This document shows positions 1,444 through 57,991 of a DNA stretch of 64,000 nt, piece by piece (the first letter of the stretch is position 1; each line of letters starts with the position of its first letter). The notes beneath the pieces are model-generated. The model worked only from the letters and a program-made list of their open reading frames with translations, had not been told where the DNA came from and made no database searches. A program made the translations under genes and the position numbers. Origin of the DNA: a virus (Duplodnaviria; Heunggongvirae; Uroviricota; Caudoviricetes); IMG/VR virus record IMGVR_UViG_3300028042_000001, positions 92,944 to 156,943 of that record; one strand, written 5' to 3'.

Positions 1444-1513
1444 AGTACATTACGAACTTCTTGTTTGTATAAATACTATTATAGGTATTTACTTCACAAC
1501 AGGAGATTGGTAA

Positions 1514-2167
1514 ATGAGAAAAGGAATGAGTTGTTCTGAATCTGGTAAATTAGGAGCATTGAAATCAAAGGTCATACAAGAAACAAAGTTACAAGATAGA
1601 AAAGAAAATTATTACATGATACCAAAATTATGTGAGTATTGTGGTAATATAATAAAATATAAGAAAAGACATAATAGGTTCTGTAATAGATCATGTTCAG
1701 CTTCTTTTAATAATAAAGGAGTTAGGAGACATGGAAATTCAGATAATAACAAAAAAGAGAAGGTTTGTTTGTGGTGTGGTGGATCAGATTTCAGTAAAAA
1801 TTCTAAGAAATTTTGCTCTATGGAATGTCATCACAAATATGAATATTATATATTTATTAATAAATGGAAACTTGGTATTGATAATGGCAACAGAAAAAAT
1901 TGCATAGCAAACCAGATAAGAAGGTATTTATTTGATAAGTATAATAATAAATGTTCAAGGTGTGGATGGAAAGAGATAAATCCAATCACAAATAAAGTTC
2001 CTCTCGAAATAGAACATATTGATGGTAATCATAAAAATAATAATGAATATAATCTTGATTTGATATGTCCTAATTGCCATTCTTTAACACCAACATATAA
2101 ATTATTGAATAAAGGTAATGGACGTTATTATCGTAAAAAACGATATAATTCTGGAAAGAGTTATTAA
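1514..2167 (+). CDS. HNH endonuclease, Cys-rich, putative homing endonuclease
   Basis: C-terminal HNH motif EIEHIDGNHKNN..LICPNCH; multiple CxxC pairs; TATAAATA (T4 late-promoter-like) 39 nt upstream. Confidence 0.75.
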   Translation: MRKGMSCSESGKLGALKSKVIQETKLQDRKENYYMIPKLCEYCGNIIKYKKRHNRFCNRSCSASFNNKGVRRHGNSDNNKKEKVCLWCGGSDFSKNSKKFCSMECHHKYEYYIFINKWKLGIDNGNRKNCIANQIRRYLFDKYNNKCSRCGWKEINPITNKVPLEIEHIDGNHKNNNEYNLDLICPNCHSLTPTYKLLNKGNGRYYRKKRYNSGKSY

Positions 2168-2188
2168 ATTAAAACAAAGGAGATATAA

Positions 2189-2842
2189 ATGAAAGAAAAT
2201 TATTGTCATATAGTTGGAATTATTGATTGTTCTGGATCTATGGTTGGATTAGAAAATGATGTAATTGGTGGGTTTAATAAATTTGTTGATGATCAAAGAA
2301 AAGCAAAAGGTACAGCAACTATGTCTTTAATTCAATTTGATGATGGTTATTATTCAGATTTTGAATTTGTTAATATTAATGATGTTCCTGATTTAAATCG
2401 TGATACTTATATTCCTCGTGGTATGACTGCATTGTATGATGCTATTGGAAAAACTATTAATTCTACAGGAGAGGTTCTTAAAAATATGAATGAAAATGAT
2501 CGTCCTGATCGGGTTGTTGTTTTTATTCAAACTGATGGACAAGAAAATAGTTCTTTAGAATATAATGCAAATTCAATAAAGCAAATGATTAACAAACAAG
2601 AAGAAATGTATAATTGGTCTTTTGTTTTTCTTGGCGCTAATATTAATGCAAAAAGTACAGCTAATATTATTGGTATTGATAAAAAAATGTCAATGACTTT
2701 TGCCGCAAATAGTAAAGGAACAACTTCAGCGTTTAATTCTGTATCTGAGAATCTTTCTGCTGTTCGGTGTGGAACTAAATTAAATATGTGTTATGAGAGT
2801 AAAGATTATAGTGCTCAAGCTGATGCAGGTCTTCATATTTAA
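2189..2842 (+). CDS. von Willebrand factor type A (vWA) domain protein
   Basis: N-terminal MIDAS motif IIDCSGSM (DxSxS) and vWA-like length/layout; RBS AAGGAG. Confidence 0.6.
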   Translation: MKENYCHIVGIIDCSGSMVGLENDVIGGFNKFVDDQRKAKGTATMSLIQFDDGYYSDFEFVNINDVPDLNRDTYIPRGMTALYDAIGKTINSTGEVLKNMNENDRPDRVVVFIQTDGQENSSLEYNANSIKQMINKQEEMYNWSFVFLGANINAKSTANIIGIDKKMSMTFAANSKGTTSAFNSVSENLSAVRCGTKLNMCYESKDYSAQADAGLHI

Positions 2843-2927
2843 TATAAAAACCCTTGACATTCATTAAAAATATGATTATAGTATTTTTAATGAATAATGT
2901 ATATTAAATTTTGAGGAGGATTACATC

Positions 2928-3185
2928 ATGAAATACAATCAAATAGTTAATAAAATTCGTAGTGTTGTTTATAGTTGTGAAACTAATGAGCAATTAGATG
3001 TTGCTTGTAAATATTCATTTTTGTTAATTGATAATTATTTCATAATTAACAAAAATGATAATATTGATGAACGATATGATAAAATTTTTTTAAAGAATGA
3101 AATGTATAATTGGCTTAAATTTATTACTGTTAATAATAATAACATTAACAGTAGAATTATTGGTGTATGTGAAAAAGAAATATAA
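2928..3185 (+). CDS. hypothetical protein (85 aa)
   Basis: ORF with GAGGAGG RBS. Confidence 0.4.
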   Translation: MKYNQIVNKIRSVVYSCETNEQLDVACKYSFLLIDNYFIINKNDNIDERYDKIFLKNEMYNWLKFITVNNNNINSRIIGVCEKEI

Positions 3186-3193
3186 AAAAAAAT

Positions 3194-3268
3194 GGGGCAT
3201 TAGCCCACGCTGGTAGAGGCACAAGGTTTAAGCCCTTGATAGGATCGGTTCGACTCCGATATGCCCTA
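3194..3268 (+). tRNA. tRNA with anticodon TAA (Leu by standard code) but short variable arm
   Basis: acceptor GGGGCAT/ATGCCCT, anticodon stem CAAGG/CCTTG, loop TTTAAGC, T-arm ATCGGTTCGACTCCGAT; paralog of the tRNA at 15761. Confidence 0.6.
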
Positions 3269-3636
3269 ATTATATGCTGAAATTCCTTTGAATAGGTATG
3301 GATACATAATGGTTTGATTCCATGATTTCAGCTCCATTTTTTTGGATGTATAAATAATAATATGAAATCGTTTAGAGAGTTAAATAATAATGATGTTTGT
3401 GTAAATTGCAAACATTGGCTGAAATTAATGAAGCAACATTCTCATCGTAATACATGATATTGTAGAAAAATAGGAAACAAACCTTCTTTATTTGATAAAT
3501 GGGATGTTACTGATTTTGATAATACATGTATTGATTATAAAAGAAGGAAAAAAATAAAATGAAATTTTATAAACATAAACAGGAAAAATACAAAGGAATT
3601 TAGACCATACATACAATATCGGTCTATATTCACTAT

Positions 3637-3711
3637 GGATCGGTGGCGCAACTGGATTAGCGCATCAGGTTTTTACCCTGAATGTTGAGAGTTCGAATCT
3701 CTCTCGATCCA
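3637..3711 (+). tRNA. tRNA-Lys (anticodon TTT)
   Basis: acceptor GGATCGG/TCGATCC, anticodon stem CAGG/CCTG with loop TTTTTAC, T-arm GAGAGTTCGAATCTCTC. Confidence 0.75.
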
Positions 3712-3760
3712 CAATAATGAATGTTATGAAAAGCTTTAAAAAATGTAAAAAAATAAAAAT

Positions 3761-3837
3761 GCGGATTGATAAGTTAAGGGTTTTGACAAACAGTTTTCCA
3801 AACTGTAAATATGGAGTTCGACTCTCCCGATCCGCTC
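3761..3837 (+). tRNA. tRNA-Gly (anticodon TCC)
   Basis: acceptor GCGGATT/GATCCGC, anticodon stem ACAGT/ACTGT with loop TTTCCAA, T-arm GGAGTTCGACTCTCC. Confidence 0.7.
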
Positions 3838-4123
3838 AATAATGGAATTTATGAATTGGTTTAAGAGAATATTTCATATACATAAATGGTTTTTATTATC
3901 ATATGAATGGTGATGCTATGCGTATTTGTGTTAAGTGTGAATGTATTCAAATTAAGAATAACAATAAATGGAATAAGAAATGAAAGTATCAAGAAACAAC
4001 AATCATAGAAGTAACTCGTATATTATGGCTATTACGCCTGTATGTGTGTCTGTGCGCTTTTTTGATGCGTATCCTATAGTGAAAACTATGTAGCTCATTT
4101 CCTTTATATTAGGAAAACCTGAA

Positions 4124-4160
4124 GGGGGAAATGAGATTAAATCTTGTTTCCCCCTTTTTT
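4124..4160 (+). terminator. rho-independent terminator
   Basis: GGGGGAAA...TTTCCCCC hairpin followed by TTTTTT. Confidence 0.6.
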
Positions 4161-4261
4161 ATTGATCTTTGAAAATAGAATATTGAAAGTATGGTATATC
4201 CATAACTATCACTATACCAATAAGTATAAATATTAATATACTTATAAAATAGGAGATTGTA

Positions 4262-4867
4262 ATGGATATAACTATAGCTAATGTAAAAAGGTTAATTAAA
4301 GATGGATTTACACAGAAACAAATTGCAGAAGAATTTGATATTAGCCCATCTGGATTAAGATATTGGTTAAAAAAATATAATTTAAAAACTAATTATATGG
4401 TTGATAGAAGAACATGGACTGACGATATGCTTATTGAAGCAGTTTCTAAATCTATTAGTATAGCTGATGTTATACGAAATATTGGTTTATCATTAAGACC
4501 GGGGAATTATCCAACAATTAACAAAGTTATAAAACGCCTTGATCTTGATATATCACATTTTAAAGGAAAATCTCATGGTAATGGTGGTATTGTGTATGAG
4601 TTAGAAGATGTTATGATTAGAAATTCTCCATATTCAAGAACATCTTTAAAGAGGAGGTTGTTAAAATGTAATATGATAGAGAATATATGTGATATATGTG
4701 GTATTGGTGAATGGAATAATAAACCAATTGTGATGGTACTCGATCATATAAATGGAATTAATAATGATCATCGTAGAGAAAATTTGCGAATGATATGTCC
4801 TAATTGTAACAGCCAACAAAATACCTTTTGTCGTAGAAATAAAAATGGGGGTATAGCTCAGAGGTAG
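4262..4867 (+). CDS. HNH endonuclease with N-terminal HTH, putative homing endonuclease
   Basis: HTH-like FTQKQIAEEFDISPSGLRYWLKKY; HNH motif LDHINGINNDHRRENL..CPNCN; TATAAATA at 4225-4232 upstream; 3' end overlaps the next tRNA. Confidence 0.75.
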   Translation: MDITIANVKRLIKDGFTQKQIAEEFDISPSGLRYWLKKYNLKTNYMVDRRTWTDDMLIEAVSKSISIADVIRNIGLSLRPGNYPTINKVIKRLDLDISHFKGKSHGNGGIVYELEDVMIRNSPYSRTSLKRRLLKCNMIENICDICGIGEWNNKPIVMVLDHINGINNDHRRENLRMICPNCNSQQNTFCRRNKNGGIAQR

Positions 4868-4919
4868 AGCATTACCGTGAAATGGTATGTGTCGAAAGCT
4901 CGAAACTTTCTATCCCCAC
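4847..4919 (+). tRNA. tRNA-like (anticodon GAA, Phe?) with imperfect acceptor stem
   Basis: D-arm TAGCTCAGAGGTAGAGC, anticodon loop GTGAAAT, T-stem GAAAG/CTTTC; two mismatches at the base of the acceptor stem. Confidence 0.45.
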
Positions 4920-4927
4920 AAACATAT

Positions 4928-5011
4928 GGAGAGTTGGCAGAATGGCTATTGCACCCGGCTGTAACCCGGCAGTACCTTTTTAGGTTCTTGGTTCGAGTCC
5001 AAGGCTCTCCA
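4928..5011 (+). tRNA. tRNA-Tyr (anticodon GTA), long variable arm
   Basis: acceptor GGAGAGT/GCTCTCC, anticodon stem CCGG/CCGG with loop CTGTAAC, long variable arm, T-arm TTGGTTCGAGTCCAA. Confidence 0.65.
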
Positions 5012-5040
5012 CAATTTATAATATATATATAACAAAAGAC

Positions 5041-5068
5041 TTGACTTTAAATTTATATAGTGTATAGT
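5041..5068 (+). promoter_or_regulatory. sigma70-like promoter (TTGACT-16-TATAGT) with conserved leader, copy 1 of 3
   Basis: consensus-like -35/-10; followed by leader CATACTTGAGACAAACATTAATTATGGAGAACATAATG, which recurs at 53702 and 51799. Confidence 0.5.
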
Positions 5069-5108
5069 GTATTCATACTTGAGACAAACATTAATTATGG
5101 AGAACATA

Positions 5109-5471
5109 ATGACAATTGACGTAGAAAAATTTCTCAAAGAATATATGAATGAAATGGAAATTAGACTTAATCGATTAGAAAACAGCATTAAACCACGAGG
5201 AATTATATGTGGTCAGAATTGGATTGTTAGAGTTAAAGGTATTTGTGTTACTCCTGAATTTGATAAAGATGGTCAAACAACAGGTGTAGTTAAAAATAAT
5301 GATCCTGATCTTGTTATGAGATTTGTTCAAGAAGATGCTGAAATGCTTGCTTCTACAACAACTAACGGTGCTGGTGATAAAGGTGAATCTGTTATATGGG
5401 CAGATGCAGTAAGGGATTTAATTGAAGAACTTAAACCTCAACTTGAAATATTGAAGAATCGTAAAAAATAA
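5109..5471 (+). CDS. hypothetical protein (start chosen at second ATG, after GGAGA)
   Basis: ORF; RBS GGAGA lies 7 nt upstream of ATG 5109; the track start at 5067 is inside the conserved leader. Confidence 0.45.
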   Translation: MTIDVEKFLKEYMNEMEIRLNRLENSIKPRGIICGQNWIVRVKGICVTPEFDKDGQTTGVVKNNDPDLVMRFVQEDAEMLASTTTNGAGDKGESVIWADAVRDLIEELKPQLEILKNRKK

Positions 5472-5477
5472 ATAAAT

Positions 5478-5563
5478 GGATGCTGTCAGTAAGGTTAGAT
5501 GGTCTAACGGTTGGTTGTAACCCAACTCCCAAAGGGCATGAGGTTCGATTCCTCCGGTATCCA
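5478..5563 (+). tRNA. type II tRNA (apparent anticodon GTA; long variable arm)
   Basis: acceptor GGATGCT/GGTATCC (with G-U pairs), anticodon stem GTTGG/CCAAC with loop TTGTAAC, variable stem CCC/GGG, T-arm GAGGTTCGATTCCTC. Confidence 0.5.
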
Positions 5564-5918
5564 CAAAAATTGAGGTAGTATTATTATTATGTTTATACCA
5601 GATTGTATTATATATTCAGAAGTAAGACCGTCACCAATTATCACATATTATATCGTTGCTATGTTTGATCATAGTGGTGATTGTGATAAATGGCATTATA
5701 CTAATCCTGAAGTATGGGTATAAATTTAAAGAAGTAACGGATATATTATGAAATTAAAAAGATCAAAGATTAAAAAATTTCATGAAGGTGATGTGTATAA
5801 TTTCGTGAATGGTGTTGCAAAAGTTCCTAATATGTTTTTTGGTAGAGGTATAACAAGAGAACAAGCAACAGTATCATTAAAAGATTTTAATATTTTTATT
5901 AAAAAATAGATTATTTAT

Positions 5919-6095
5919 GCCACATTAGCTCAGTGGGTAGAGCGGTTGGAAAAGCGTCATAATTGATTTTTGTATTTAATATTGTATAATAGACTTAATT
6001 AATCCATTATACAATATGATTATAAGAATGATTGTACATAATTTCTTATAATGTTATTTAAATTAATTGCACAGGTTCGAATCCTGTATGTGGCT
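5919..6095 (+). tRNA. tRNA gene interrupted by ~110-nt AT-rich intervening sequence (possible intron)
   Basis: 5' part GCCACAT TA GCTCAGTGGGTAGAGC (acceptor plus D-arm); 3' part ACAGGTTCGAATCCTGT ATGTGGC, T-arm plus a perfectly complementary acceptor strand, about 130 nt downstream. Confidence 0.5.
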
Positions 6096-6216
6096 CATAG
6101 TATAAGTTGTCAAGTAGCTCTTGACTGATGTGGGAGTTTTTCAGTTCCTTCCTACAAAGAATATATAAGCGCTGATAATATTGCAATAATCGGTAATAAC
6201 TGACCAAATTTGTACA

Positions 6217-6292
6217 TCAGAATGTAGGCTAATGGTAAGCCCTTCCTCTTGGACAGGAAAAATTAGAGGTTCGAGTCCTCTCATTCTGACCA
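6217..6292 (+). tRNA. tRNA-Pro (anticodon TGG)
   Basis: acceptor TCAGAATG/CATTCTGA, anticodon stem TTCCT/AGGAA with loop CTTGGAC, T-arm AGAGGTTCGAGTCCTCT, CCA encoded. Confidence 0.75.
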
Positions 6293-6680
6293 TTTTTATT
6301 ATATTAAATAGATGATATCACAGTTGAGGGATATGAGAGTAGGATTTAATTCACAATCTCATTGAAATTACCTATGTATTACGAGGGTTGATCTCCTTAA
6401 TCTATTTGTTTTAGACCAATAATACTGATACGCAAGCGGTCTATTTAGTATAATATTTTTACTTGAATTAAAAATTAAAAAAAAAAGAGGATATTATGAA
6501 AATTTTTTGGAAAGTTGATGACGGATATGTTAATAATGTAGAGCATATGACTGAAATTCCTGATGAAGATTTGGAAGGAATGTCACCAGATGTTAGAAAA
6601 ATGGAAATTGATGAATGGGTTTCTGACGATTTCTCTCAAAATATTTCTTTTGAGATTATCAGAGAAGAATCATAATTAAT

Positions 6681-6856
6681 GTCCTTCGTTGGCTGTCGTA
6701 TGTGAATTTCCTTACAAGGAGCGCATATTAACCATGAATCGGATATGCGAAATTGTAAATACGGATCATGAACTGGTATTAACTTGATACCTGAAGATGG
6801 AACCCTGAAGCTACTGTAAGGGTAGATAAGGCAAGGTTCGATTCCTTGGAAGGGCA
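6681..6856 (+). other. tRNA-like element: T-arm plus acceptor 3' end, with complementary acceptor 5' strand 170 nt upstream (insertion or fragment)
   Basis: CAAGGTTCGATTCCTTG GAAGGGC A at 6832-6856 pairs with GTCCTTC at 6681-6687; intervening sequence has no canonical D/anticodon arms. Confidence 0.3.
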
Positions 6857-6880
6857 CATTTTAATTGACATTGCATGGGT

Positions 6881-6943
6881 ACAGGTGTACAATGAAAGCT
6901 CATATCTTTCATGTAGTGGGTTCGATACCCATACATGCAACCA
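6881..6943 (+). tRNA. tRNA-Met (anticodon CAT), compact D-arm
   Basis: acceptor TTGCATG/CATGCAA plus CCA; anticodon stem TGAAAG/CTTTCA with loop CTCATAT; T-arm GTGGGTTCGATACCCAT. Confidence 0.6.
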
Positions 6944-7026
6944 AAAATAATAATGATAATGTGAAAAAAAAAATGAATATATAATATTAGAAATGTTTAT
7001 AGTTGAAAAACCTGATCAGGAAATAT

Positions 7027-7100
7027 GGTCTTGTGGCTCATTGGTAGAGCGGTACGTTGTCAGCGTATTTTAAGAGGGTTCGATTCCCTTCAAGATCGCA
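7027..7100 (+). tRNA. tRNA-Asp (anticodon GTC)
   Basis: acceptor GGTCTTG/CAAGATC, D-arm GGCTCATTGGTAGAGC, anticodon loop TTGTCAG, T-arm GAGGGTTCGATTCCCTT. Confidence 0.75.
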
Positions 7101-7350
7101 TGAGGATTATTATTTAATTCTCTTTGATAGTAGGTACATACTGTTATTAATTTAACACCATGAACCGTGGGATGAAAAATATTCCCAAAAGTTTAGGGTA
7201 GAGAATGATCTTATTAACCATTTGATTATATCTATCCTTGGTGAAGATGCGAGAGTAGTAAGGTAGCTGTGGTGGTATATCTGAAATCAACCATTAGTAG
7301 CCTAAAAAATTATTGTTAGATTAATAACTATTCGATGAGTAGTTATTGAT

Positions 7351-7424
7351 GTGACAGTAGCTCAAAGGTTAGATCATGTGGCTGTGACCCACAAGATGAG
7401 GGTTCGATTCCCTCCTGTCACCCA
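7351..7424 (+). tRNA. tRNA-His (anticodon GTG)
   Basis: acceptor GTGACAG/CTGTCAC, D-arm TAGCTCAAAGGTTAGA, anticodon stem TGTGG/CCACA with loop CTGTGAC, T-arm GAGGGTTCGATTCCCTC, CCA. Confidence 0.75.
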
Positions 7425-7450
7425 TTTAAATTAAAAAGGATATATATTAT

Positions 7451-7771
7451 ATGAAAGTGATTGATGCAGGACATACATATTTACTTGATGATAACAAATC
7501 ACCAACAAATACTACAACATTAACATTTATGAAGGATGCTAAAATAAATGGAGATGGTTATGAAGGAACAACTAATCAGGAAGTTTTACGAGCATTAATA
7601 GATCGTATTAAATTTCTAGAAGGGCAAGTTCATCATAGATTTAATGATGATATTATTGGTCATCTTAGGATGGCATTGGTTCTTCATGAAGAACGACATT
7701 TAGAACGATTAGTAGAACGAGGAGAATCTATAGAAAATATTAAACCTAAAATTACTGGACATTTTGTATGA
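7451..7771 (+). CDS. hypothetical protein (106 aa)
   Basis: ORF with AAGGA RBS; ATGA overlap with the next gene. Confidence 0.45.
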   Translation: MKVIDAGHTYLLDDNKSPTNTTTLTFMKDAKINGDGYEGTTNQEVLRALIDRIKFLEGQVHHRFNDDIIGHLRMALVLHEERHLERLVERGESIENIKPKITGHFV

Positions 7772-8130: not shown

Positions 8131-8193
8131 TCTAGGGGTTAAGGCATCTCGCTTACATCGAGAATAACACTGGTTCGAATCCAGTATCTTCTA
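8121..8193 (+). tRNA. tRNA-Val (anticodon TAC)
   Basis: acceptor AGAAGAT/ATCTTCT, anticodon stem TCTCG/CGAGA with loop CTTACAT, T-arm CTGGTTCGAATCCAG; 5' end overlaps the stop of the upstream CDS. Confidence 0.7.
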
Positions 8194-10339: not shown

Positions 10340-10840
10340 ATGGAAAGGGTGATAGTGTTAAATTATGATTATAGTTTTCTAAATGTTGTTTCTCCTGAAA
10401 AGGCTTTTTCTTATATAGCTCGTGGAAAGGTTATTGTTGAAAAAGTAGCGGATAAGGTCTTGACAACTGCTGAAAAATCATTTAAAATACCTGTAATTGT
10501 TCGGTTCTCTTATATGATAAGACAAATATATAAGAGAAAAATACCATGGAGTAAGCGTAATGTGTGTATCAGAGATAATTATACCTGTGCATACTGTGGT
10601 GTAAAAAGTGATATAATGACAGTTGATCATGTTATACCTAAAGCTCATGGAGGAAAAAACACTTTTGATAATTGTGTTGCATCATGTAAGAAATGTAATA
10701 ATAAAAAAGGTGATAAAACATGTAAAGAAATAGGAATGTTTCCTTCTCATAATAGAACACATCCTACTGTTTCTGACTTCATGCGATTATGGTATAAACA
10801 ATATAATGTAAATGATATTATAAAATCAATATGGGAGTGA
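10340..10840 (+). CDS. HNH endonuclease
   Basis: CAYCGVKSDIMTVDHVIPKAHGGKNTFDNCVASCKKCNNKKG HNH motif; RBS AAGGAGGA; the track ORF start at 10199 is translated tRNA sequence, so the start was moved to the ATG at 10340. Confidence 0.75.
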   Translation: MERVIVLNYDYSFLNVVSPEKAFSYIARGKVIVEKVADKVLTTAEKSFKIPVIVRFSYMIRQIYKRKIPWSKRNVCIRDNYTCAYCGVKSDIMTVDHVIPKAHGGKNTFDNCVASCKKCNNKKGDKTCKEIGMFPSHNRTHPTVSDFMRLWYKQYNVNDIIKSIWE

Positions 10841-12560: not shown

Positions 12561-13051
12561 TTTTTTTATTACTAAGGATATATCATGATAAAACACATAA
12601 TTCTGCTGATGTGTTTGTGATGGATATTGCTCAAACATATGATGGATTAAAAGTTATAGAGTATAATACATTTAATTCTGCTGGATTATATGCCTGTGAT
12701 GTTGGTAATATAATTGATGGTATAAACAATTTCTTACAAGAACCATGTTGAGGTTCATTACCTCTTCATGAGAACGGACTATGCGTAAGTAGTCTTCCTA
12801 AGTGGTACGCAACCATGTAGGGCAAAATCAATAAGTCTTTTTGAAGGACATGTGTTGATGTTGTGGTGAAAATCCATATTACGATCCAATGGGGCTATAC
12901 TTGGGAGGACTGAATGGCTTGCAACCAATCGGGCAGGGTTCAATTCCCTGTAGTTCCACAATATATTTTTCAGCGATATCAGCCACTAAAGCTGATAACG
13001 GTGTTCTTAATCACTTAACAGAATGCGAAGGAGTAGTGACCGGACTGAAAC

Positions 13052-13125
13052 GCTACATGGTGAAATGTTATCACAAAGGGATATATGACCCTTAGTTTCA
13101 GGTTAAATTCCTGATGTAGCAACCA
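13052..13125 (+). tRNA. tRNA-like with apparent 8-nt anticodon loop (ATATATGA)
   Basis: acceptor GCTACAT/ATGTAGC, D-stem GTGA/TCAC, anticodon stem AAGGG/CCCTT enclosing 8 nt, T-arm TCAGGTTAAATTCCTGA. Confidence 0.4.
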
Positions 13126-14603: not shown

Positions 14604-14682
14604 CTTGACAAATATAATCTCATATTGTATGATAATTTATCAACAATACAAAATATTAATATTACAATATGAGAGGTTTATT

Positions 14683-15057
14683 ATGATTGAAGACTTAATA
14701 ATGGCTAAGAAATATATATCAAAAGCAAACAGAGCATCAAAAAAAGGATTAGATTTTACACTTACTTTTGCTCAATATAAAAGGTTGATGTCTAGAAAAA
14801 CTTGCGCTTATTCTGGTCTTAGATTTTCTGAAATTAATGAAAAACGTGCATGGAAAAATGAATGGTTAGGACTTACTCTTGATCGTATTGATAATAGTAA
14901 AGGATATATTCAAGGTAACGTGGTTCCTGTGTGTAATGGAGTTAATCAATTAAAAGGACAGTGGGAAAATCCTCTTCTTCCTTTTGATGAAAAAACAACT
15001 ATAAAAATCATTACAAAAATTATGTTAGCTAAGAATAATCTTGACATTCTTGATTAG
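14683..15057 (+). CDS. HNH-family endonuclease (LDRIDN..GN type)
   Basis: LTLDRIDNSKGYIQGNVVPVCNGVNQLKGQW motif; start moved to the ATG after GAGAGG RBS; TTGACA-17-TATGAT promoter at 14605. Confidence 0.6.
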   Translation: MIEDLIMAKKYISKANRASKKGLDFTLTFAQYKRLMSRKTCAYSGLRFSEINEKRAWKNEWLGLTLDRIDNSKGYIQGNVVPVCNGVNQLKGQWENPLLPFDEKTTIKIITKIMLAKNNLDILD

Positions 15058-27076: not shown

Positions 27077-27109
27077 GGGATATAGCATAAATGCTATATC
27101 CCTTTTTTT
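27077..27109 (+). terminator. rho-independent terminator
   Basis: GGGATATAGCAT..ATGCTATATCCC hairpin plus TTTTTTT. Confidence 0.65.
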
Positions 27110-27148
27110 GTTTGTTATAAATAATAGTATAAAATTAGAGGATAAAAT

Positions 27149-27376
27149 ATGTCAGTAGAAAAATCATATGAAGAATTTGTAATTATTCATGAAAAAAAGC
27201 TTATGTCTAAGGATGTTGATTCTGTAGAGAATGGCATTGTTAGTGTTATTAACAGAGCATCATCTATATTAGGAAATATAGATGATGGTGAGTTAGATAA
27301 AGTTAATGAATTGTTTGATAAAGGAATGTTATTATTAAAGAAAATACTTAACAAACATGATTTATATGAAATATGA
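27149..27376 (+). CDS. hypothetical protein (75 aa)
   Basis: ORF with GAGGA RBS. Confidence 0.35.
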   Translation: MSVEKSYEEFVIIHEKKLMSKDVDSVENGIVSVINRASSILGNIDDGELDKVNELFDKGMLLLKKILNKHDLYEI

Positions 27377-40058: not shown

Positions 40059-40124
40059 GTCATTATAAGAATGAGAATTTATAATAAAACGAACAAATAC
40101 GGAATAAGTCAAACACTACGATAG

Positions 40125-40186
40125 CTCAGTGGTAGAGCGCCTGTATATTAAACAGTATGTGGTAGGTTCAATTCCTACTCGTAAAT
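40125..40186 (+). tRNA. tRNA-like gene with imperfect acceptor stem and ambiguous anticodon loop
   Basis: D-arm TAGCTCAGTGGTAGAGC, T-arm GTAGGTTCAATTCCTAC, anticodon region CTGT ATATTAA ACAG; acceptor ACTACGA/TCGTAAA has two terminal mismatches. Confidence 0.4.
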
Positions 40187-42830: not shown

Positions 42831-42878
42831 ATATATTATTAATTGAGTCTCCTAAATAGTATCAAAGGAGACTCAATT

Positions 42879-43349
42879 ATGCATCAACTTAAACAAAGAG
42901 ATATACAATCTGTAAGAAGTAAAATATTAAAAGAAGACCAAGACGGTGTTTGTTTAATATGTGGCAACGAACCAAAGATTCCTTGTCTTGATCATAGTCA
43001 TAAAAAAAGAACAAAAGGTACAGGTTTAGTTAGAGGAGTTTTATGTTCATCTTGTAATATTTTTATAGCAAAATCAGAGAATAATTGTGTTCGGTATGGT
43101 ATTGCTCAAAAAGATCTTCCTAACATACTAAGAAAAACTGCTGATTATTTGGAAAGAGAACATTATCATTATATACATCCATCAGAAGCACCAAAACCAA
43201 AGAAACTAAAGAAACGTAGCTATAATGTGCTTAAAAAGGCGTATAAAGGACGTGCAAAGTTCCCACCATACCCAAAGTCGGGTAAGCTAACAAAACCTCT
43301 CAGAACGCTATATAAGACTTATAATATATTACCTTCATTTTATGCTTGA
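42879..43349 (+). CDS. endonuclease VII (T4 gp49-like Holliday junction resolvase)
   Basis: GVCLICGNEPKIPCLDHSHKKRTKGTGLVRGVLCSSCN matches the EndoVII Zn-binding/HNH-like core (CLICQ..HLDHDH..GKVRGLLCNLCN); start taken at ATG 42879 after the hairpin. Confidence 0.75.
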   Translation: MHQLKQRDIQSVRSKILKEDQDGVCLICGNEPKIPCLDHSHKKRTKGTGLVRGVLCSSCNIFIAKSENNCVRYGIAQKDLPNILRKTADYLEREHYHYIHPSEAPKPKKLKKRSYNVLKKAYKGRAKFPPYPKSGKLTKPLRTLYKTYNILPSFYA

Positions 43350-51142: not shown

Positions 51143-51818
51143 TATGATGCACAAATTTAAACAGCATATTTATGATGATGTGGGGAGAATTTATGAATTT
51201 GATAATGGTAGTCGGTATTATAGTGTAACTACTGCATTGGGTGCTACAGGAGATAAAAGCTTCCTTGATGCATGGAAGAAACGATTAGGCAAGCAACGAG
51301 CAGAGGCAGAACTAAAATATGCCGGGGATATTGGTACTCAAATGCATGAATCTCTTGAATATTATCTTATATATAAAGAAGAGCCTGAAAATTATCCAAA
51401 TTCTGTTGTTAAAAATCTTTCTAAACAAATCATTCCATATCTTGATCGTAATGTTTCTGATGTTTTTGCTACAGAAAAGGTATTATATTCTAATAATCTT
51501 AAATTAGCTGGTACTGCTGATGGAATTGTTCATTATCGACTAAAATCAGGTATTTTTCCTGTTATTCTTGATTTTAAAACATCTAAAAAATTAAAACAAA
51601 TTAAATGGATGCATGATTATTTTCTTCAGTTGGCTATATATGCTATTATGATGGAAGAATTATATGGTCAGCCTATAAATTCTGGTGTATTATTATTTGC
51701 ATACAAACAAGTACGGAATATAAATAAAGAATTTATCGTTAATTTAACAAAGTATAAACAAATTGCTATAAAAAGAATAGAAATGTTTCATAAAATGATT
51801 GACATATCTGTTAAATAG
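51132..51818 (+). CDS. PD-(D/E)XK nuclease (RecB/Cas4/lambda-exo-like fold)
   Basis: motifs MHESLE, AGTADGIVHY, ILDFKTSKK (DxK), QLAIYAIM (QxxxY). Confidence 0.6.
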   Translation: MMNNMMHKFKQHIYDDVGRIYEFDNGSRYYSVTTALGATGDKSFLDAWKKRLGKQRAEAELKYAGDIGTQMHESLEYYLIYKEEPENYPNSVVKNLSKQIIPYLDRNVSDVFATEKVLYSNNLKLAGTADGIVHYRLKSGIFPVILDFKTSKKLKQIKWMHDYFLQLAIYAIMMEELYGQPINSGVLLFAYKQVRNINKEFIVNLTKYKQIAIKRIEMFHKMIDISVK

Positions 51819-51826
51819 TGTATAAT
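51799..51826 (+). promoter_or_regulatory. sigma70-like promoter TTGACA-16-TATAAT with conserved leader, copy 2 of 3
   Basis: followed by CATACTGATTGAGACATACATTTTATTATGGAGAACATTATGAC, homologous to the leaders at 5069 and 53730. Confidence 0.5.
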
Positions 51827-51870
51827 GATTACATACTGATTGAGACATACATTTTATTATGGAGAACATT

Positions 51871-52443
51871 ATGACTGATGAGCAGAAGATTAAGAGACTT
51901 GAAGAAATTCAAAAAACAATATTTGATCTAGCAGAAAAAGCAGAGAATGTTATAATTTCTTATGGATCTGCTAATGATGTTCGATCTGCTCTTCTTCAGA
52001 TCAGGAAAGAAAGTTTGAATTTATTTGAAGTTGTTTCTGATATTGAGATTGAATTTAATAATTCTAAAGAAGATCCTTCCAATGATGGTATAGTTCCTTT
52101 TGAAGAAGATGAATTAACGCCTCTAATTAAAGATCATACTTGTAGTAAAGATGATGATCGTGTTATTATATTTTTTACTGGTGCTAAGAAAATTAATAAA
52201 AAACATAATGAGAAGTTTTTCCCTAATGTTCCTCTTGATAAATTTCGTATGACTCAAGGAAAACGATATATTAAAGTAATTCGTGGTGGAAGTGTTCATT
52301 GTTTTATTGACCGCATCAATGGTGATGTATTAAAAGCGGCTTCGTGGAATGCTCCTGCAAAACATGCCCGTGGTAATATATGGGATGATGATAATGGTCT
52401 TAATTGTATGTCTGAATATGGTGCGGCTTACCTTAGAGGATGA
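51871..52443 (+). CDS. hypothetical protein
   Basis: ORF; start taken at the second ATG after GGAGA (alternative in-frame start at 51859). Confidence 0.45.
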   Translation: MTDEQKIKRLEEIQKTIFDLAEKAENVIISYGSANDVRSALLQIRKESLNLFEVVSDIEIEFNNSKEDPSNDGIVPFEEDELTPLIKDHTCSKDDDRVIIFFTGAKKINKKHNEKFFPNVPLDKFRMTQGKRYIKVIRGGSVHCFIDRINGDVLKAASWNAPAKHARGNIWDDDNGLNCMSEYGAAYLRG

Positions 52444-52955
52444 TATGACTATTATTATTAGTATAGGTGCGCCTAATCCTGTAATATATGATGTTTTTAA
52501 AGATGATGATCGTGTTATTATTGTTGATGATAACACGATTAAAGGAGAAGATATTGATATGATGAATGCAAGGATACATAAATTTGAATTGATTGATTAT
52601 GATTATGATTATTTTGAGAAATATACTGAATATGATTGGAACCAATTATCAAATGATGTAAATTCTATTAATATTTTATTAATTATATCAAAGATGTTTA
52701 TTTGTAAAATTTTTGTAACTTATTTTATTAGTTATTGGTGTTGTAATAAAATGATGTTTAGTGTTAGTGGGTATTTACCTAAAAAAATAAGGGAAAATAA
52801 AAAATGAAAAATGCACAACTTGTAATGGTGATTTTGTTGATAATTGAATTTTTTGCACATAATAATAGATTAAATAAATTTAATAGTAAAGGATCATCAG
52901 GAATAAATTTATTATCTTCTATTATAAGGATGTCTGTTATTATCGGTGTTCTTTA

Positions 52956-53234
52956 TTGGGGAAATTTCTGGATATGAAACATTTTAATTATGAATCAATA
53001 TGTAAAGAATTATTAAATCTTCTTATAATAAAAATAAGCGAGTCTTGTGATGATTGTGAATATCTTAATTATTCTACATCAGCTATAAGCTCTTATTGTG
53101 AAAGTTCATTAAGTCCTATGAATAATGGATTTATGGATGGAGAATATGGGTGTAAATATCATTCACAAATTATTAAATTAAAAAAAACATATTCAATTAT
53201 ATTGGATGAAACAAAACAGGAGAATAAATTATGA
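52956..53234 (+). CDS. hypothetical Cys-rich protein
   Basis: ORF. Confidence 0.35.
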   Translation: MGKFLDMKHFNYESICKELLNLLIIKISESCDDCEYLNYSTSAISSYCESSLSPMNNGFMDGEYGCKYHSQIIKLKKTYSIILDETKQENKL

Positions 53235-53318
53235 TCGATGATATAATTATGTATTGTGATGAATGTGGATGGGTTACTATTGATGCAGAAGATGTTCATA
53301 TTACCATGAATTTAAAAA

Positions 53319-53681
53319 ATGATAACGTTGAATATAATGATACATGTTCTAATGATGATTGTGATTGTAGATTATTTAATTCAAGGAGAGCACATGTATA
53401 ATGTTAATGAGGAAAATTATGATGATGGTGTTGATTTTGCAGATGGTGATTGGTCTGATGGATGGCATGAACGTTGCGGTAACACATTATTTAAAGAAAA
53501 ATCTATATACGCTTTAACATTTATGGAATTTAGAGATAAAGAATTTATTTGTATATTTAAAGATGGTGATTTTTCTCCATTAGCATCTATTCATGGTAAT
53601 TATGATGTTGTTTATCCTCCTCTTTTGCCCCTTTGTAATCAATTAAGGATAACATCAGTAAAGAAATATTCATGTGCATAA
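53319..53681 (+). CDS. hypothetical protein
   Basis: ORF; true start probably at the internal ATG near 53394 after GGAGAG. Confidence 0.35.
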   Translation: MITLNIMIHVLMMIVIVDYLIQGEHMYNVNEENYDDGVDFADGDWSDGWHERCGNTLFKEKSIYALTFMEFRDKEFICIFKDGDFSPLASIHGNYDVVYPPLLPLCNQLRITSVKKYSCA

Positions 53682-53701
53682 TTAATTAATAAATAATGTG
53701 C

Positions 53702-53729
53702 TTGACTTTTATGATAAGTAGTGTATAAT
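53702..53729 (+). promoter_or_regulatory. sigma70-like promoter TTGACT-16-TATAAT with conserved leader, copy 3 of 3
   Basis: followed by CATACTTGAGACAAACATTACTTATTATGGAGACTACATCATGA; here the first ATG opens a 5-codon mini-ORF overlapping the main start. Confidence 0.5.
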
Positions 53730-53774
53730 ATATCCATACTTGAGACAAACATTACTTATTATGGAGACTACATC

Positions 53775-55004
53775 ATGATCAATTCAGTTATTACTTCTTA
53801 TTACCTCGAATCATTTAAAACTGATCTTAAAATTGCATGTAAAAAGATGAAAGTTGATTATGATGTGGTTGTTGGAGAAAAACGTGTAATTGCTTCTATT
53901 CCTTATAATCAAGCAGATACTTCATCATTTTCTTCTTTTTATGATGTTTGGGGATATGATGTAGTTATCAATATTCATGATATTGATAAAATGACTGATA
54001 CTGGTTATGAATATCTTGGCTGTATTAAAGATGATGGATTATTGTCTGTTCATCCTAATGATAATGCTGATTTTGATATATCTTCTATGGATCAAATTAA
54101 AACCTTTCCTTGTGATCGTTGTGGTCGCAATCATTCTCGTAATATAATTCATGTTTTTCGTAAAGATGGTAAAGTTACCGTTTATGGATCTACATGTGCA
54201 AAAACTAAATTTGGTATTGATGTTAATGTTTTGATTGCTAAATTTAGTAAAATTAAAGAGCAATTTGGGTTTGCTGATTATGATGATATGGATACTTATG
54301 GTGGATTTGGTAAAGGATGGAAATTCATTAATGCAGATATCTTTATTCCTATGTCATATTATGAGATTGTAGAACATGGTTATGTATCTGCATCTAAAGT
54401 ATATGATGATGGATGTGGTATATCTACTGCTGAAACTGTTGAAAGTGATTATTTTCAAATGATTGATGGTAATAATACTATCAGAAAGGAATTTGATTGG
54501 AATACAAATAATATCGAATTTGATTTTGACGATTTTATGGTATGGGCGAAAGGATTTATCAATGATATGGATTCTAATGATTTTAAGTTCAATATGGAAG
54601 GTGCATTTACCTCTATAGAAGAAGGATATGTTCATCCTCGTACTAAAGGGTTTGTATCATATCTTGCATTTAAATTTTGGTATGACAATAAAAAAGTATG
54701 TATTCCTATAGATACTTTTAATGAAGATTATTCTGATATGCCTATTGGTTTTAAATTTAAGAATCTCACAGTAGAAATTATTAATGAATATACTTTTGAA
54801 GGAAATTATGGAACAACTCATATTTACACTATGAAAGGTGTTGATGATGGTGTAAAATATAAATGGTTTGCATCAAAAGAATTAGATACTAATTATATTC
54901 ATATACTAACATCAGGCACTGTTAAGGATCATGAAAATGATGTTCGTTATGGTAAATCATGTGTTATTACTCGATGCAGAGCAAAAGCTATAGTAGAGGA
55001 CTGA
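53775..55004 (+). CDS. hypothetical protein (410 aa) with CxxC..C Zn-binding patch
   Basis: ORF; CDRCGRNHSRN..CAKT; start set at the ATG after GGAGA. Confidence 0.45.
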   Translation: MINSVITSYYLESFKTDLKIACKKMKVDYDVVVGEKRVIASIPYNQADTSSFSSFYDVWGYDVVINIHDIDKMTDTGYEYLGCIKDDGLLSVHPNDNADFDISSMDQIKTFPCDRCGRNHSRNIIHVFRKDGKVTVYGSTCAKTKFGIDVNVLIAKFSKIKEQFGFADYDDMDTYGGFGKGWKFINADIFIPMSYYEIVEHGYVSASKVYDDGCGISTAETVESDYFQMIDGNNTIRKEFDWNTNNIEFDFDDFMVWAKGFINDMDSNDFKFNMEGAFTSIEEGYVHPRTKGFVSYLAFKFWYDNKKVCIPIDTFNEDYSDMPIGFKFKNLTVEIINEYTFEGNYGTTHIYTMKGVDDGVKYKWFASKELDTNYIHILTSGTVKDHENDVRYGKSCVITRCRAKAIVED

Positions 55005-55005
55005 T

Positions 55006-55263
55006 ATGGCAGATATAAAAATAACATCTCCTGATAAAAAGCAAATAATGGTTAGAAAAGTGCATGATATACAGGAAGAATTGTATGAAATGCTACCTCC
55101 TGATACAAATGTTATCAGAGAGACTATACATGATAGAAAATGGGAAGATGCAGAAAGTCTTATATCCGATTATATGAACACTTTACACTGGAAGATTCAA
55201 TCACTTAAAGAATCTAGAAAGATGATAAAACGTATTATAAGTCAAAATAAAGGATTATTATAA
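55006..55263 (+). CDS. hypothetical protein
   Basis: ORF. Confidence 0.35.
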   Translation: MADIKITSPDKKQIMVRKVHDIQEELYEMLPPDTNVIRETIHDRKWEDAESLISDYMNTLHWKIQSLKESRKMIKRIISQNKGLL

Positions 55264-55586
55264 TGTATTATTTTGATAATAAAAGACAAACTGGCCGCAC
55301 CACAAGAATGATTGATGACGCATTAGAATCATTTATGGATGGGTGGGATATTATTATAACAGCATTTACATTAAGTTATTCTCTTGATATTCAAAATTTG
55401 ATGTGTTATAAAATGGAAGCATATGGTATTAAATTTAATGCGTCAAAATATATTATTAATGTTTGTGGTCGTGAAATGATATTTACTAGACATATTGAAA
55501 ATATCAATTATGTCCGGGAATGTCATTATATAAAACATAATAAAACTTATTTATTATTCGAGGATCATTATAATGGTAAAATGTAA
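55263..55586 (+). CDS. hypothetical protein
   Basis: ORF. Confidence 0.35.
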   Translation: MYYFDNKRQTGRTTRMIDDALESFMDGWDIIITAFTLSYSLDIQNLMCYKMEAYGIKFNASKYIINVCGREMIFTRHIENINYVRECHYIKHNKTYLLFEDHYNGKM

Positions 55587-55830
55587 TTATAGTCGTGGAT
55601 GGGCAGGTAATTGTACTAATAGTAGAAATAATACATCACCATATTGTGATGCACATGATGGCGTTCCTTGTGTGTCCTGTGGAGAACAAGCAACACACGA
55701 ATGTTCAGAAGAAACAAAACAATTTTTGAGAGATGATTTGATTCAATATGTTATGAAAGAAGGTAGAGGCCATTTTAATGCTAAAAATGTTAAAGAAATT
55801 ATTGATTGTATATTCGAGAATAATAAATGA
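55573..55830 (+). CDS. hypothetical Cys-rich protein
   Basis: ORF. Confidence 0.35.
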   Translation: MVKCNYSRGWAGNCTNSRNNTSPYCDAHDGVPCVSCGEQATHECSEETKQFLRDDLIQYVMKEGRGHFNAKNVKEIIDCIFENNK

Positions 55831-56075
55831 TACTTAAAACAAAATATAGTATTGATGATAATGTTATATTTCAAACACAATCATCAGGAAAACCCTTGAC
55901 AGGATGGATACATCATGTTAAGATGCAGGTGTTCAAAGTAGAAACTAAAGGTAATGTAAGAATGTGTAATCATACTATCATTATATATTATCAAATAAAA
56001 GATACATTAGGAAGAATTTGGATTGCTCTTGAAGAAGATATTAAAGGGTTAAGAAGAGATTTAATAAAATTATAA
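55827..56075 (+). CDS. hypothetical protein
   Basis: ORF. Confidence 0.35.
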   Translation: MILKTKYSIDDNVIFQTQSSGKPLTGWIHHVKMQVFKVETKGNVRMCNHTIIIYYQIKDTLGRIWIALEEDIKGLRRDLIKL

Positions 56076-56090
56076 CAGAGGAAATTTATT

Positions 56091-56444
56091 ATGAGTGTAA
56101 TGAAACCAACAGCAGGAGAAGTATCATCTCTTAAAGGTACTGAAATTATTTATGTGTTTGATGAATCTAATGGAGATATACTTAACGGAAAGGTGTGTAA
56201 AGCTTATGTAGCTCAATCTGATGTTGATAAAGGTATCACTATTATGGGCCATCTTCCTGATGATGGTGATGATGTGCCTGATTGTGTAATTCAATGTTGT
56301 AATTCTCATGGAAACCCTGATAGTGAGGATTATATAGAAATTCTTAATAAATACATCACATTAATAAAATCAGGAGTTTTTGAAGATAATACTGCTAGTG
56401 GTGGTGATGTATATTATATGAATGAATCTTGTGCTTTTAGTTAA
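56091..56444 (+). CDS. hypothetical protein
   Basis: ORF with GAGGAAA RBS. Confidence 0.4.
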   Translation: MSVMKPTAGEVSSLKGTEIIYVFDESNGDILNGKVCKAYVAQSDVDKGITIMGHLPDDGDDVPDCVIQCCNSHGNPDSEDYIEILNKYITLIKSGVFEDNTASGGDVYYMNESCAFS

Positions 56445-56476
56445 AAAAAAAATAATAACCTAAAAAAGGTAATATC

Positions 56477-56923
56477 ATGATTAAATTAAATAAACTCGAC
56501 AAACCTAATACCATCTACGCAGAAGTTATTGAAGATGGTGCTTTGACTCAATTTATAACTGCTATGGAACAACATTTTACTGTTCGTGGTGCGCTTATGC
56601 CTGATGCTCATTTAGGATATACTTTGCCTATTGGTGCTGTTATCGAAACTGAGGGTGTTGTATATCCTTCTTATGTTGGTTTTGATATTGGGTGTGGTGT
56701 GTGTGCTCTTCCTTTATCATGTAGAACTGGTGATATCAAACATAAAGCTCATCGAATTTATGAAATGATTAAACGTAATGTTCCTGTGGGATTTAATAAA
56801 CATAAAAACTCTGTTAAAGAGTCGTATAATTTTTTAGTAAATAAAGATAATTGTACTAAAACTATGCATGAAATTTATCATAATAAAAATGGTGATCTTC
56901 AGCTTGGTACTCTTGGGGGTGGT
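56477..56923 (+). CDS. rtcB: RtcB RNA ligase, exon 1
   Basis: RGALMPDAHLGYTLPIGAV, GFDIGCGV, ..LGTLGGG at exon end (conserved GTLGGGNHFIE is completed by exon 2); the ORF continues into the intron for 10 codons before a stop. Confidence 0.8.
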
Positions 56924-57991
56924 AAAATGACTGCTTCCAGCCCAAGAGGATAATCTAAATATACTGAAATCTCTTCTGATTGACTTGGAAATCCAGTAGC
57001 GAGGATGACAGGGGGCAAGCGTAAAGGTAGCCTGAGAGACTGAGTGAAGAGACTCAACAAAATGTGAGAAGCGACAGTCCGATCTACAGTATAACCTTAC
57101 GGGAAGCTGTAGAGACAACCAGAAATGAGTTGTCCGTTGTTTCAATGAAATGGTATCAAATATCCTGTTTGTATAAATAATATAAACAGGAGGATTTATG
57201 TTAGATAATATTTCAAACAATGATTTTAGTTATATCGTAGGATTTTTACAAGGTGATGGTAATTATTACAAACAATCAAGAAATCGGGGAAAAGTAACAA
57301 TAGAGTTATCTATTAGAGATAAAAATATTATAACCAAGATGATTGATAACCTCTCAGAATATAAATGTTATTATTCTGAGAGGAAAAGAAATACTAATTT
57401 TAAAGATTGTTTTGAATCTTGTAAATTAAGTATTTATGAAAAACGGTTCAGGGATGAAATAGAAAAATACATTCCTGAAGGAAACAAATCACATATTATA
57501 GAACCACCTTTAAAAGAAGATTGGTTTTCTTCGTTTGATTATTTAAGAGGAATATATGATGCTGATGGTAGTATTGGTATAACTGGTAATAATAGACCGT
57601 TTATATCATTATGTACTGATTCAAAACCGTTAAAACAGTTTGTAATAAGAATATTAAATGATAATATTGGTATTGTAAAACGCATAAATCGTAACAAAAG
57701 AGACAATATATATAATATTGTTTGTTACGATGAAGATGCTGTTAATTTTGCTGATTTATTATATAATAATTCTGATATGTATTTAGACAGAAAGTTTGTT
57801 AGTTATAAAAAAATACAATCATGGGTTAGAACCACACCAAAACGAAAGGGAACTAAGAAAACATGGTTGCCTATTGAAGATAAAATAATAATGAATAATG
57901 ATTATTCATTAGATGAAAAGGTTATCTTACTCAATCGTAGTAAAAGTTCTATCAAGACTAGAATATGGAGAAACAATAGTAACAAAACATG
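56924..57991 (+). mobile_element. group I intron in rtcB carrying a LAGLIDADG homing endonuclease gene
   Basis: exon 1 ends with U; P1-like pairing CTCTTGGG / CCCAAGAG across the 5' splice site; intron ends with G immediately before exon 2 codon AAT (N of NHFIE); locally GC-richer structured core 56950-57170. Confidence 0.7.

Follow-up and report, generated by a model that had tools for sequence, protein, structure and literature searches.

A T4-type late-promoter element, with a probable late role, before three homing-endonuclease genes of an uncultured T4-superfamily phage

The DNA analysed here (the window) is a stretch of 64,000 nucleotides (nt) from the IMG/VR virus record IMGVR_UViG_3300028042_000001, positions 92,944 to 156,943, with 29% G+C, its genes on one strand and 22 tRNA genes. 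It carries the octamer TATAAATA, identical to that of the late promoters of phage T4, ahead of three homing-endonuclease genes. A first-pass annotation had placed exact copies at 1468-1475, 4225-4232 and 57172-57179 and read them as late promoters; the three copies are indeed found at these positions, all on the + (coding) strand, and the analysis argues that such a role is probable. The gap from the end of the motif to the ATG is 38 nt for the gene beginning at 1514, 29 nt for that at 4262 and 18 nt for that at 57198. In T4 the octamer spans -13 to -6 relative to the transcription start (PMC1524935), and the +1 positions given below are predicted from this geometry as the motif start plus 13. 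The endonuclease genes and the elements before them are as follows.

1468..1482, + strand: late-type promoter before the HNH gene at 1514; TATAAATA followed by cTatTAT, predicted +1 at 1481, best -35 match 3/6
1514..2167, + strand: free-standing HNH endonuclease gene in the tRNA cluster, after tRNA-Thr (1369-1442); PHROG HNH families, E = 1e-22
4225..4239, + strand: late-type promoter before the HNH gene at 4262; TATAAATA followed by tTaaTAT, predicted +1 at 4238, best -35 match 3/6
4262..4867, + strand: free-standing HNH endonuclease gene with an N-terminal helix-turn-helix (HTH), its 3′ end overlapping tRNA-Phe (4847-4919); PHROG HNH, E = 2.8e-43
57172..57186, + strand: late-type promoter in the RtcB insertion, before the LAGLIDADG gene; TATAAATA followed by aTataAA, predicted +1 at 57185, best -35 match 3/6
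57198..57992, + strand: LAGLIDADG homing endonuclease gene (Pfam LAGLIDADG_3, 54 bits), its stop codon overlapping the 3′ junction of the insertion

Endonuclease genes are strongly represented among the promoter-led genes of the window: 3/5 of these encode homing endonucleases, as against 7 nuclease-type genes among ~126 genes (hypergeometric p = 0.001). All three sit within earlier transcription units, those at 1514 and 4262 in the + strand tRNA cluster and that at 57198 in RtcB. The two HNH sites can be counted as independent, because the genes are distant paralogues and the DNA upstream of them is not alignable. The open reading frames (ORFs) share 35% identity, and this over the 63-residue HNH core only; a single duplicated cassette was rejected as the source of both sites on these grounds. 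Pfam alone detects only HTH domains in ORF 4262 and nothing in ORF 1514. The PHROG scans covered ORFs of ~100 amino acids (aa) or more without a Pfam assignment, plus a few smaller ones.

The window encodes a T4-type replication module, with a family B polymerase (~41% identical to cyanophage gp43), UvsX, a gp41-like helicase and a gp61-like primase, together with RNA ligases 1 and 2. Proteins of this lineage are at most ~41% identical to those of cultured T4-like phages. No deposited phage related by DNA was found by megablast with both window ends, nor was one found through two lineage-specific proteins. Judged from its sequence, the phage is a deep-branching, uncultured member of the T4 superfamily, and with such descent a late system of the T4 type is to be expected. 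The annotation had supposed a gp55-like late sigma factor encoded outside the window, and had suggested a search there for homologues of gp55, gp33 and gp45. About 20 kb beyond the window end (loci L002 and L003) were added to it, giving an 84-kb composite; the added DNA comes from a 152.6-kb ENA contig (ERZ27262682, k141_26344), a strain variant 99.99% identical to window positions 53484-63914. A gp33 homologue lies at L003:15836-16051, ~13.6 kb beyond the window (Pfam Trans_coact, 45.7 bits with a cut-off of 25, E = 5.7e-12), and the gene order there is 33-59-32 (gp33, gp59, gp32), as in T4. The homologue is present also in the relatives L008 and L023. After gp32 follows a minus-strand structural block with a T4_baseplate gene, a tail-tube-like protein and gp2. 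The co-activator was thus found beyond the window, in keeping with the supposition that the late machinery is encoded there; gp55 itself was not located in the 84 kb, and the 20 kb past the window gave no match to either gp55 or gp45.

A genome-wide count of the octamer had been proposed as a check, and in the window it gives no enrichment. TATAAATA occurs 21 times on both strands, with 29.3 +/- 5.3 copies expected from shuffles; 10 copies are on the + strand and 11 on the - strand, though essentially all genes are on the + strand, and the intergenic copies number 6 and 5, respectively. Taken alone, these figures agree with the view that the copies have no function and that this AT-rich 8-mer arose by chance in spacers that are themselves AT-rich: 21 are seen where 29 are expected, equally on the two strands, with 5 intergenic copies on the non-coding strand, and three + strand copies are plainly incidental to promoters of a sigma-A type. 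These three (16055, 36106 and 39824), which lie within or against such promoters, were rejected as late promoters, as were two + strand copies inside genes (46039 and 51719). The count was also made in a T4 control of 50 kb of late genes. There 14/19 octamers have a start on their own strand no more than 150 nt downstream, 12 of those 14 with the motif start 22-36 nt from the ATG, and yet the octamer count is barely above composition. A raw count is therefore a weak test in any AT-rich phage, and a plain genome-wide 8-mer count is the wrong one; here it would wrongly refute the idea, because the octamer is not enriched in the window and is barely so even in the T4 late region.

It is the downstream sequence that separates the strands. 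The extension TATAAATA.T..TAT is present at 10/21 of the + strand copies and 0/16 of the - strand copies in the 84-kb composite (Fisher p = 0.0017), far above a background of 1.5% (binomial 2e-13). The first 10 kb past the window contain six intergenic + strand octamers and no intergenic - strand octamer, and the extension is common to the six. A prior-free search returned TATAAATAAT as the most coding-strand-biased intergenic 10-mer (8 vs 1), tied with a tRNA T-loop sequence and ahead of a Shine-Dalgarno (SD) 10-mer. The functional element would accordingly be ~15 nt long, with TATAAATA at -13 to -6, T at -4, T at -1, A at +1 and T at +2, the +1 being a predicted one, and TATAAATAnTnnTAT offers a practical 15-nt signature for the annotation of late genes in this lineage. 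The sites at 1468 and 4225 match the extension in full, and the site at 57172 has the T at position 10 and the A at the predicted +1. All 11 minus-strand octamers of the window were rejected as promoters, none of the 16 minus copies in the composite having the downstream extension. Five credible late-type copies are left in the window (1468, 3349, 4225, 27116 and 57172), the last as a partial match to the extension only. The two that do not precede endonuclease genes, and a terminator next to one of them, are:

3349..3363, + strand: late-type promoter; TATAAATAaTaaTAT, with an ATG at the predicted +1 (3362)
27077..27109, + strand: intrinsic terminator directly before the 27116 promoter; GGGATATAGC...GCTATATCCC then T7
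27116..27130, + strand: late-type promoter before a conserved 75-aa gene (27149-27376); TATAAATAaTagTAT, predicted +1 at 27129

The site at 27116 recurs in the orthologous spacer of a relative (orthologous proteins 41% identical), where TTATAAATA[A/T]TAGTATAAAA is kept almost perfectly and is the only copy of TATAAATA in 6.5 kb of that relative's locus. The terminator, too, is kept in the IMG/VR relative L005, with compensatory changes in the stem. A chance origin accounts neither for this orthologous conservation nor for a 7-nt extension confined to coding-strand copies, nor for the link with endonuclease genes; with the divergent pairs of octamers that are kept before late operons in four relatives and in T4 (described below), it becomes very improbable.

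A -35 element is absent at the five window sites, where the best match to TTGACA 16-18 nt upstream is 2-3/6, equal to random intergenic positions. Over the composite 9/11 late-type sites have matches of 2-3/6, the exceptions being L002:20316 (4/6) and L002:15225 (5/6). A separate promoter class, TTGAC[AT]-N16-17-TAnnnT, comprises 20 sites; the window has 18 of them and the following 20 kb the other 2, compared with 5 and 6 late-type sites, respectively. This sigma-A-type set is the early-promoter class of the phage, distinct from the late-type element, and the window is an early/middle region. The 18 window members (e.g. 2854, 12183, 29020, 37560, 41260 and 53702; + strand, intergenic) often have a TGTATAAT-like -10. 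The likeness of TATAAA to TATAAT, at 5/6 positions, raises the question of whether the octamer could be a "-10 only" promoter for the host primary sigma factor, constitutive or early and not dependent on gp55. A fair -35 at the right spacing at two sites outside the window, L002:15225 (TTGTCA) and L002:20316 (TTGTAA), would suit such a promoter, as would the failure to find gp55 in the regions searched. Yet in the sigma-A-type promoters, a class of their own with TTGAC[AT] at 16-17 nt, the -10 is never TATAAATA, for which reason the octamer was rejected in that role. The three endonuclease sites have -35 matches at the background level and no TGn, a gp33 homologue is present, and in relatives the element has exactly the place of T4 late promoters, ahead of baseplate and tail operons. 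Recognition by the host primary sigma factor is therefore unlikely.

If the element is a late promoter it should stand before late genes, as the first-pass reading implied, and it does so here and in relatives. In this phage the copy at L002:16172 precedes an operon that ends in a tail-fibre-like gene encoding 676 aa (L003:10001-12031), and cell-wall hydrolase genes lie in the same stretch. A 57%-identical homologue of the 676-aa protein is encoded between the tape-measure/tail genes and the holin/lysin genes of a siphovirus-like element, and from this position the protein would serve in receptor binding or as a tail fibre. Four relatives (L008, L009, L010 and L023; marker-protein identity 55-70%) have octamers on both strands of the short spacer that separates the gp2 operon from the gp53/gp5/gp25/gp6 baseplate operon, each directed towards the operon on its side. 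The T4 4/53 junction has the same overlapping divergent octamer pair.

A promoter of this kind could also be a true phage late promoter that is read by a small sigma factor other than gp55, or by a phage polymerase, its identity with the T4 octamer being convergent. That gp55 went undetected in the 84 kb and in the relatives' loci would agree with this, and so would the conserved bases at -4, -1, +1 and +2, which have no counterpart in the T4 late region, where no fixed sequence follows the octamer. The T4-superfamily core genes, the gp33 homologue in the T4 gene order and the T4-like promoter layout at the gp2/baseplate junction point the other way, since in T4 gp33 acts together with gp55 and gp45 (PMC1524935); moreover, the gp55 search left ~70 kb of the genome outside. 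A reader other than gp55 is in our estimate quite unlikely.

Two further observations concern these late genes. The 676-aa protein is 56-57% identical to proteins encoded in the siphovirus-like element, which also has a tape measure, a holin_4_1 and a GH25 lysin, and in a contig binned to a Syntrophobacterales metagenome-assembled genome (MAG) (L020 and L022), which looks like an exchange of receptor-binding proteins between unrelated phages; these matches are too weak to name a host, and a host assignment from them was rejected. An orphan TATAAATA(c/t)tatcATGacttaaccc occurs at L003:20615 and, in the 70% relative, at L023:11338, antisense to the baseplate operon and just past the T4_baseplate gene. 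It may give an antisense late transcript, or its conservation may be incidental.

As a T4-type late promoter the element would be read by the host RNA polymerase with a gp55-like late sigma factor, helped by the gp33 homologue and a sliding clamp, and would need no -35. Each endonuclease gene would then lie embedded in an early/middle unit, the tRNA cluster for the HNH genes and RtcB for the LAGLIDADG gene. RNA reading through from that unit would form a hairpin in which a 5′ arm upstream of the late start pairs with the SD/AUG region, and RNA begun at the late promoter would be without this arm and hence translatable, so that the endonucleases would be made only late. We infer the transcription starts, the late timing, the gp55 dependence and the translational occlusion in this scheme, whereas the analysis shows directly the sequence element with its specificity for strand and position, its conservation ahead of late genes in relatives, the gp33 homologue and the RNA folds as predictions. 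The predicted hairpins over the ribosome-binding sites (RBS) are:

1448..1516, + strand: read-through RNA hairpin at gene 1514; arm 1448-1468 pairs with 1496-1516 (SD AGGAG and AUG), the +1 at 1481 lying between the arms
4200..4265, + strand: read-through RNA hairpin at gene 4262; arm 4200-4215 pairs with 4248-4265 (SD and AUG)
57163..57191, + strand: 12-bp hairpin UCCUGUUUGUAU / AUAUAAACAGGA enclosing the 57172 promoter; the 3′ arm takes in bases 1-4 of the SD AGGAGG

The read-through folds have predicted energies of -17.3 kcal/mol (z = -2.6) for gene 1514, -15.9 kcal/mol (z = -2.5) for gene 4262 and -15.4 kcal/mol (z = -3.05) for gene 57198. For RNA starting at the late promoters the values fall to -3.8 kcal/mol from 1481 and -2.0 kcal/mol from 4238, and RNA from 57185 is unstructured (-1.6 kcal/mol). 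The parallel with I-TevI/II and the seg/mob endonucleases drawn by the annotation thus reaches further than the promoter, to predicted RBS hairpins that a late start would bypass (PMC2988022), and the folds are suggestive of the I-TevI/segB/mobE control logic at all three genes.

Several results weigh against late promoters of the T4 type. The bare octamer has neither enrichment nor strand bias in the window, and the element stands at only 3 of ~8 nuclease-type genes. The site at 57172 does not match the full extension. In the phage's own minus-strand structural block, the first 4 kb contain no sense-strand copy. A gp55 did not turn up in the window, in the next 20 kb or in the relatives' loci, ~70 kb of the genome lying outside the search; gp45 was not found in the 84 kb or the relatives' loci, nor were gp44 and gp62 in the 84 kb. 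These searches used phmmer with the T4 proteins against six-frame ORFs of the window and the available loci, and for gp55 also a hidden Markov model built from eight diverse gp55 proteins against six-frame ORFs; the PHROG scans, with the coverage given above, were negative for these proteins as well. Finally, in a genome-wide control with a coarse measure of SD/AUG accessibility, RBS occlusion at genes 1514, 4262 and 57198 ranks 6th, 23rd and 46th of 125 genes, which is not exceptional (Fisher combination p ~0.08). Because of these ranks the hairpins are consistent with the model and not statistically decisive, and RBS occlusion was rejected as decisive evidence.

On balance, the three TATAAATA copies are probably T4-type late promoters of an uncultured T4-superfamily phage. 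The unusual late signal of T4 would then be kept almost to the base in a deep-branching lineage, and the attachment of endonuclease genes to it, through a promoter of their own and a masked RBS (the latter predicted), would be conserved likewise. The evidence supports a familiar T4 control of late promoters and endonucleases in a new lineage, to which the extended consensus and possibly leaderless mRNAs are specific; what is not already textbook knowledge is limited to the intron-like element in RtcB and the late genes that may be leaderless.

Nuclease genes without the element are those at 10340, 14605, 40598 and 42843 and an HNH_3 gene past the window. They lie directly after a tRNA, or have a sigma-A-type promoter or a -10-like sequence, or abut the upstream gene. 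One of them, ORF 14605-15057, matches HNH/EndoVII-type PHROGs as well as the T4 Srd family ("anti-sigma / decoy of sigma-70"; E = 6.6e-25), and has a sigma-A-type promoter upstream. The endonuclease VII homologue at 42846-43349 recalls T4 gene 49; no exact late octamer precedes it, only TCCTAAATA in the loop of a perfect 10-bp hairpin (ttgagtctcc...ggagactcaa) that contains its SD, and its RBS occlusion ranks 4/125.

The LAGLIDADG gene lies in an insertion that interrupts RtcB, the parts of which are:

56477..56923, + strand: RtcB exon 1; Pfam RtcB, alignment to PDB RtcB
56924..57991, + strand: insertion of 1,068 nt, a putative group I intron; a structured 5′ part of 274 nt, then the endonuclease ORF
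57992..58681, + strand: RtcB exon 2; Pfam RtcB, 188.7 bits, alignment to PDB RtcB

The two RtcB pieces join in frame (...LGTLGGG|NHFIEIG...), the junction GGU GGU | AAU CAU restoring the conserved GGGNHF motif, and the joined protein aligns without gaps across GTLGGG|NHFIE to solved structures (2epg_A). The borders have U as the last base of the 5′ exon (...GGU|AAAAUG...) and G as the last base of the insertion (...ACAUG|AAUCAU), and the 5′ part of the insertion is significantly structured (z = -3.1). The Rfam group I model (Intron_gpI) has no match in the insertion at the gathering score or at E <= 1, perhaps because the 795-nt ORF inside the element defeats the covariance model. The precise in-frame junction therefore bears out the description of this gene as intron-encoded, with the qualification that Rfam does not recognise the element as group I; the insertion is best called a putative intron, well supported by its junction and not confirmed as group I.

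At some of the late-type sites the gene begins where the transcript is predicted to begin. In this phage an ATG lies exactly at the motif start plus 13 at window position 3362, L002:13243, L002:15238 and L003:12074 (octamers at 3349, L002:13230, L002:15225 and L003:12061), and in a relative at L008:17848 (octamer at L008:17861). In each case this ATG is the first possible start in the frame, which has a stop 18-39 nt upstream and no other start after it. A good SD is missing throughout, the nearest approach being a GGA trinucleotide at 3362, whereas 139/164 called genes match the SD over 3 nt or more. The ORFs are of 31-137 codons and include a Tad6 homologue and a holin-like membrane protein. 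The weakest candidate, because it is short, is the one in the window:

3362..3457, + strand: 31-codon ORF with CxxC; in-frame stop 39 nt upstream, no upstream start

The Tad6 (Thoeris inhibitor) homologue is at L003:6983-7354, ~4.7 kb past the window end (Pfam, 61 bits), and is predicted to be leaderless behind a late-type promoter. Tentatively, then, in a subset of late genes (holin-like, Tad6 anti-Thoeris and several small proteins) the A of the ATG may be the predicted +1 and the mRNAs leaderless, a proposal to which we give slightly less than even chances. If promoter and start codon are merged in this way, the conservation of T(-1), A(+1) and T(+2) would be accounted for. These bases, and the four ORFs of this phage with an ATG at the motif start plus 13, also lend indirect support to the predicted transcription start. 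No ATG at the predicted +1 occurs in 50 kb of T4 late genes, and a literature search found nothing on leaderless late genes in T4-type phages. If the proposal is true, this would be a T4-type late system that bypasses SD-dependent initiation.

Other features of the window were recorded in passing. T-arm/acceptor 3′ halves like those of tRNAs, called by neither ARAGORN nor Rfam, lie at ~1340, 5542, 6074, 6835, 11634 and 39979; the one ending near 6090 can be matched to a 5′ half near 5919-5945, the two being separated by ~130 nt of inserted sequence. Such halves may belong to tRNA genes that are degenerate or that contain introns. ARAGORN also called a tRNA with a four-base anticodon (atat) at 13051-13125 and a tRNA-Asn with the unusual anticodon ATT at 40115-40186. 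The strain variant differs by an indel of ~187 bp (window 63914 vs L002:10431-10618), and the ENA contig has no record of several window proteins, the polymerase among them, which hints at mosaic differences between strains.

Compared with the late promoters of T4, the element here has the identical TATAAATA, no -35 and a position on the coding strand 20-45 nt before start codons. Shared as well are the two overlapping, divergent copies where the gene 2/4 side meets the gene 53/5 baseplate side, and gp33 in the order 33-59-32. Differences are that four positions downstream of the octamer (-4, -1, +1 and +2) are conserved here, whereas T4 has no fixed downstream sequence; that some genes here start at the predicted +1, as none does in 50 kb of T4 late genes; and that the 84 kb of this phage yielded neither gp55 nor gp45. 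Among the endonuclease genes of T4, segB is located in the tRNA gene cluster, as ORFs 1514 and 4262 are in the tRNA cluster here.

Late promoters together with RBS-sequestering hairpins are known for I-TevI/II/III and segB of T4 and for mobE of Aeh1 (PMC2988022). Like segB and mobE, the HNH genes at 1514 and 4262 are free-standing and have a predicted late promoter and a predicted RBS hairpin. The likeness to mobE extends to the HNH type of the enzyme, while segB encodes a GIY-YIG enzyme; beyond the HNH motif neither has a detectable sequence relationship to the two ORFs. The gene at 57198 resembles those of I-TevI/II/III in being an endonuclease ORF within an insertion in a conserved enzyme gene, with a late promoter of its own (predicted here) inside an earlier unit, a hairpin (also predicted) that takes up the RBS in long transcripts but not in those begun at the late promoter, and an ORF 3′ end that runs into the 3′ part of the intron (PMC2988022). 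It differs in that the enzyme is LAGLIDADG, not GIY-YIG or HNH, that the host gene is RtcB and not td, nrdD or nrdB, that the putative RtcB intron is not recognised by Rfam, and that only the first half of the SD is paired. In T4, endonucleases with their own late promoter are mixed with "promoter-less cassettes" (PMC2988022), and here likewise the nuclease genes at 10340, 14605 and 40598 and the HNH_3 gene beyond the window are without a late promoter of their own. Variants of the late promoter are known from other T4-like phages, such as CTAAATA in Aeh1, and the T at -13 is poorly conserved in RB49, KVP40 and S-PM2 (PMC1524935). As in those divergent relatives of T4, the core element is found at the same position; the present lineage differs in that its octamer is complete, with the T at -13 retained, and is extended downstream rather than relaxed at the 5′ end.

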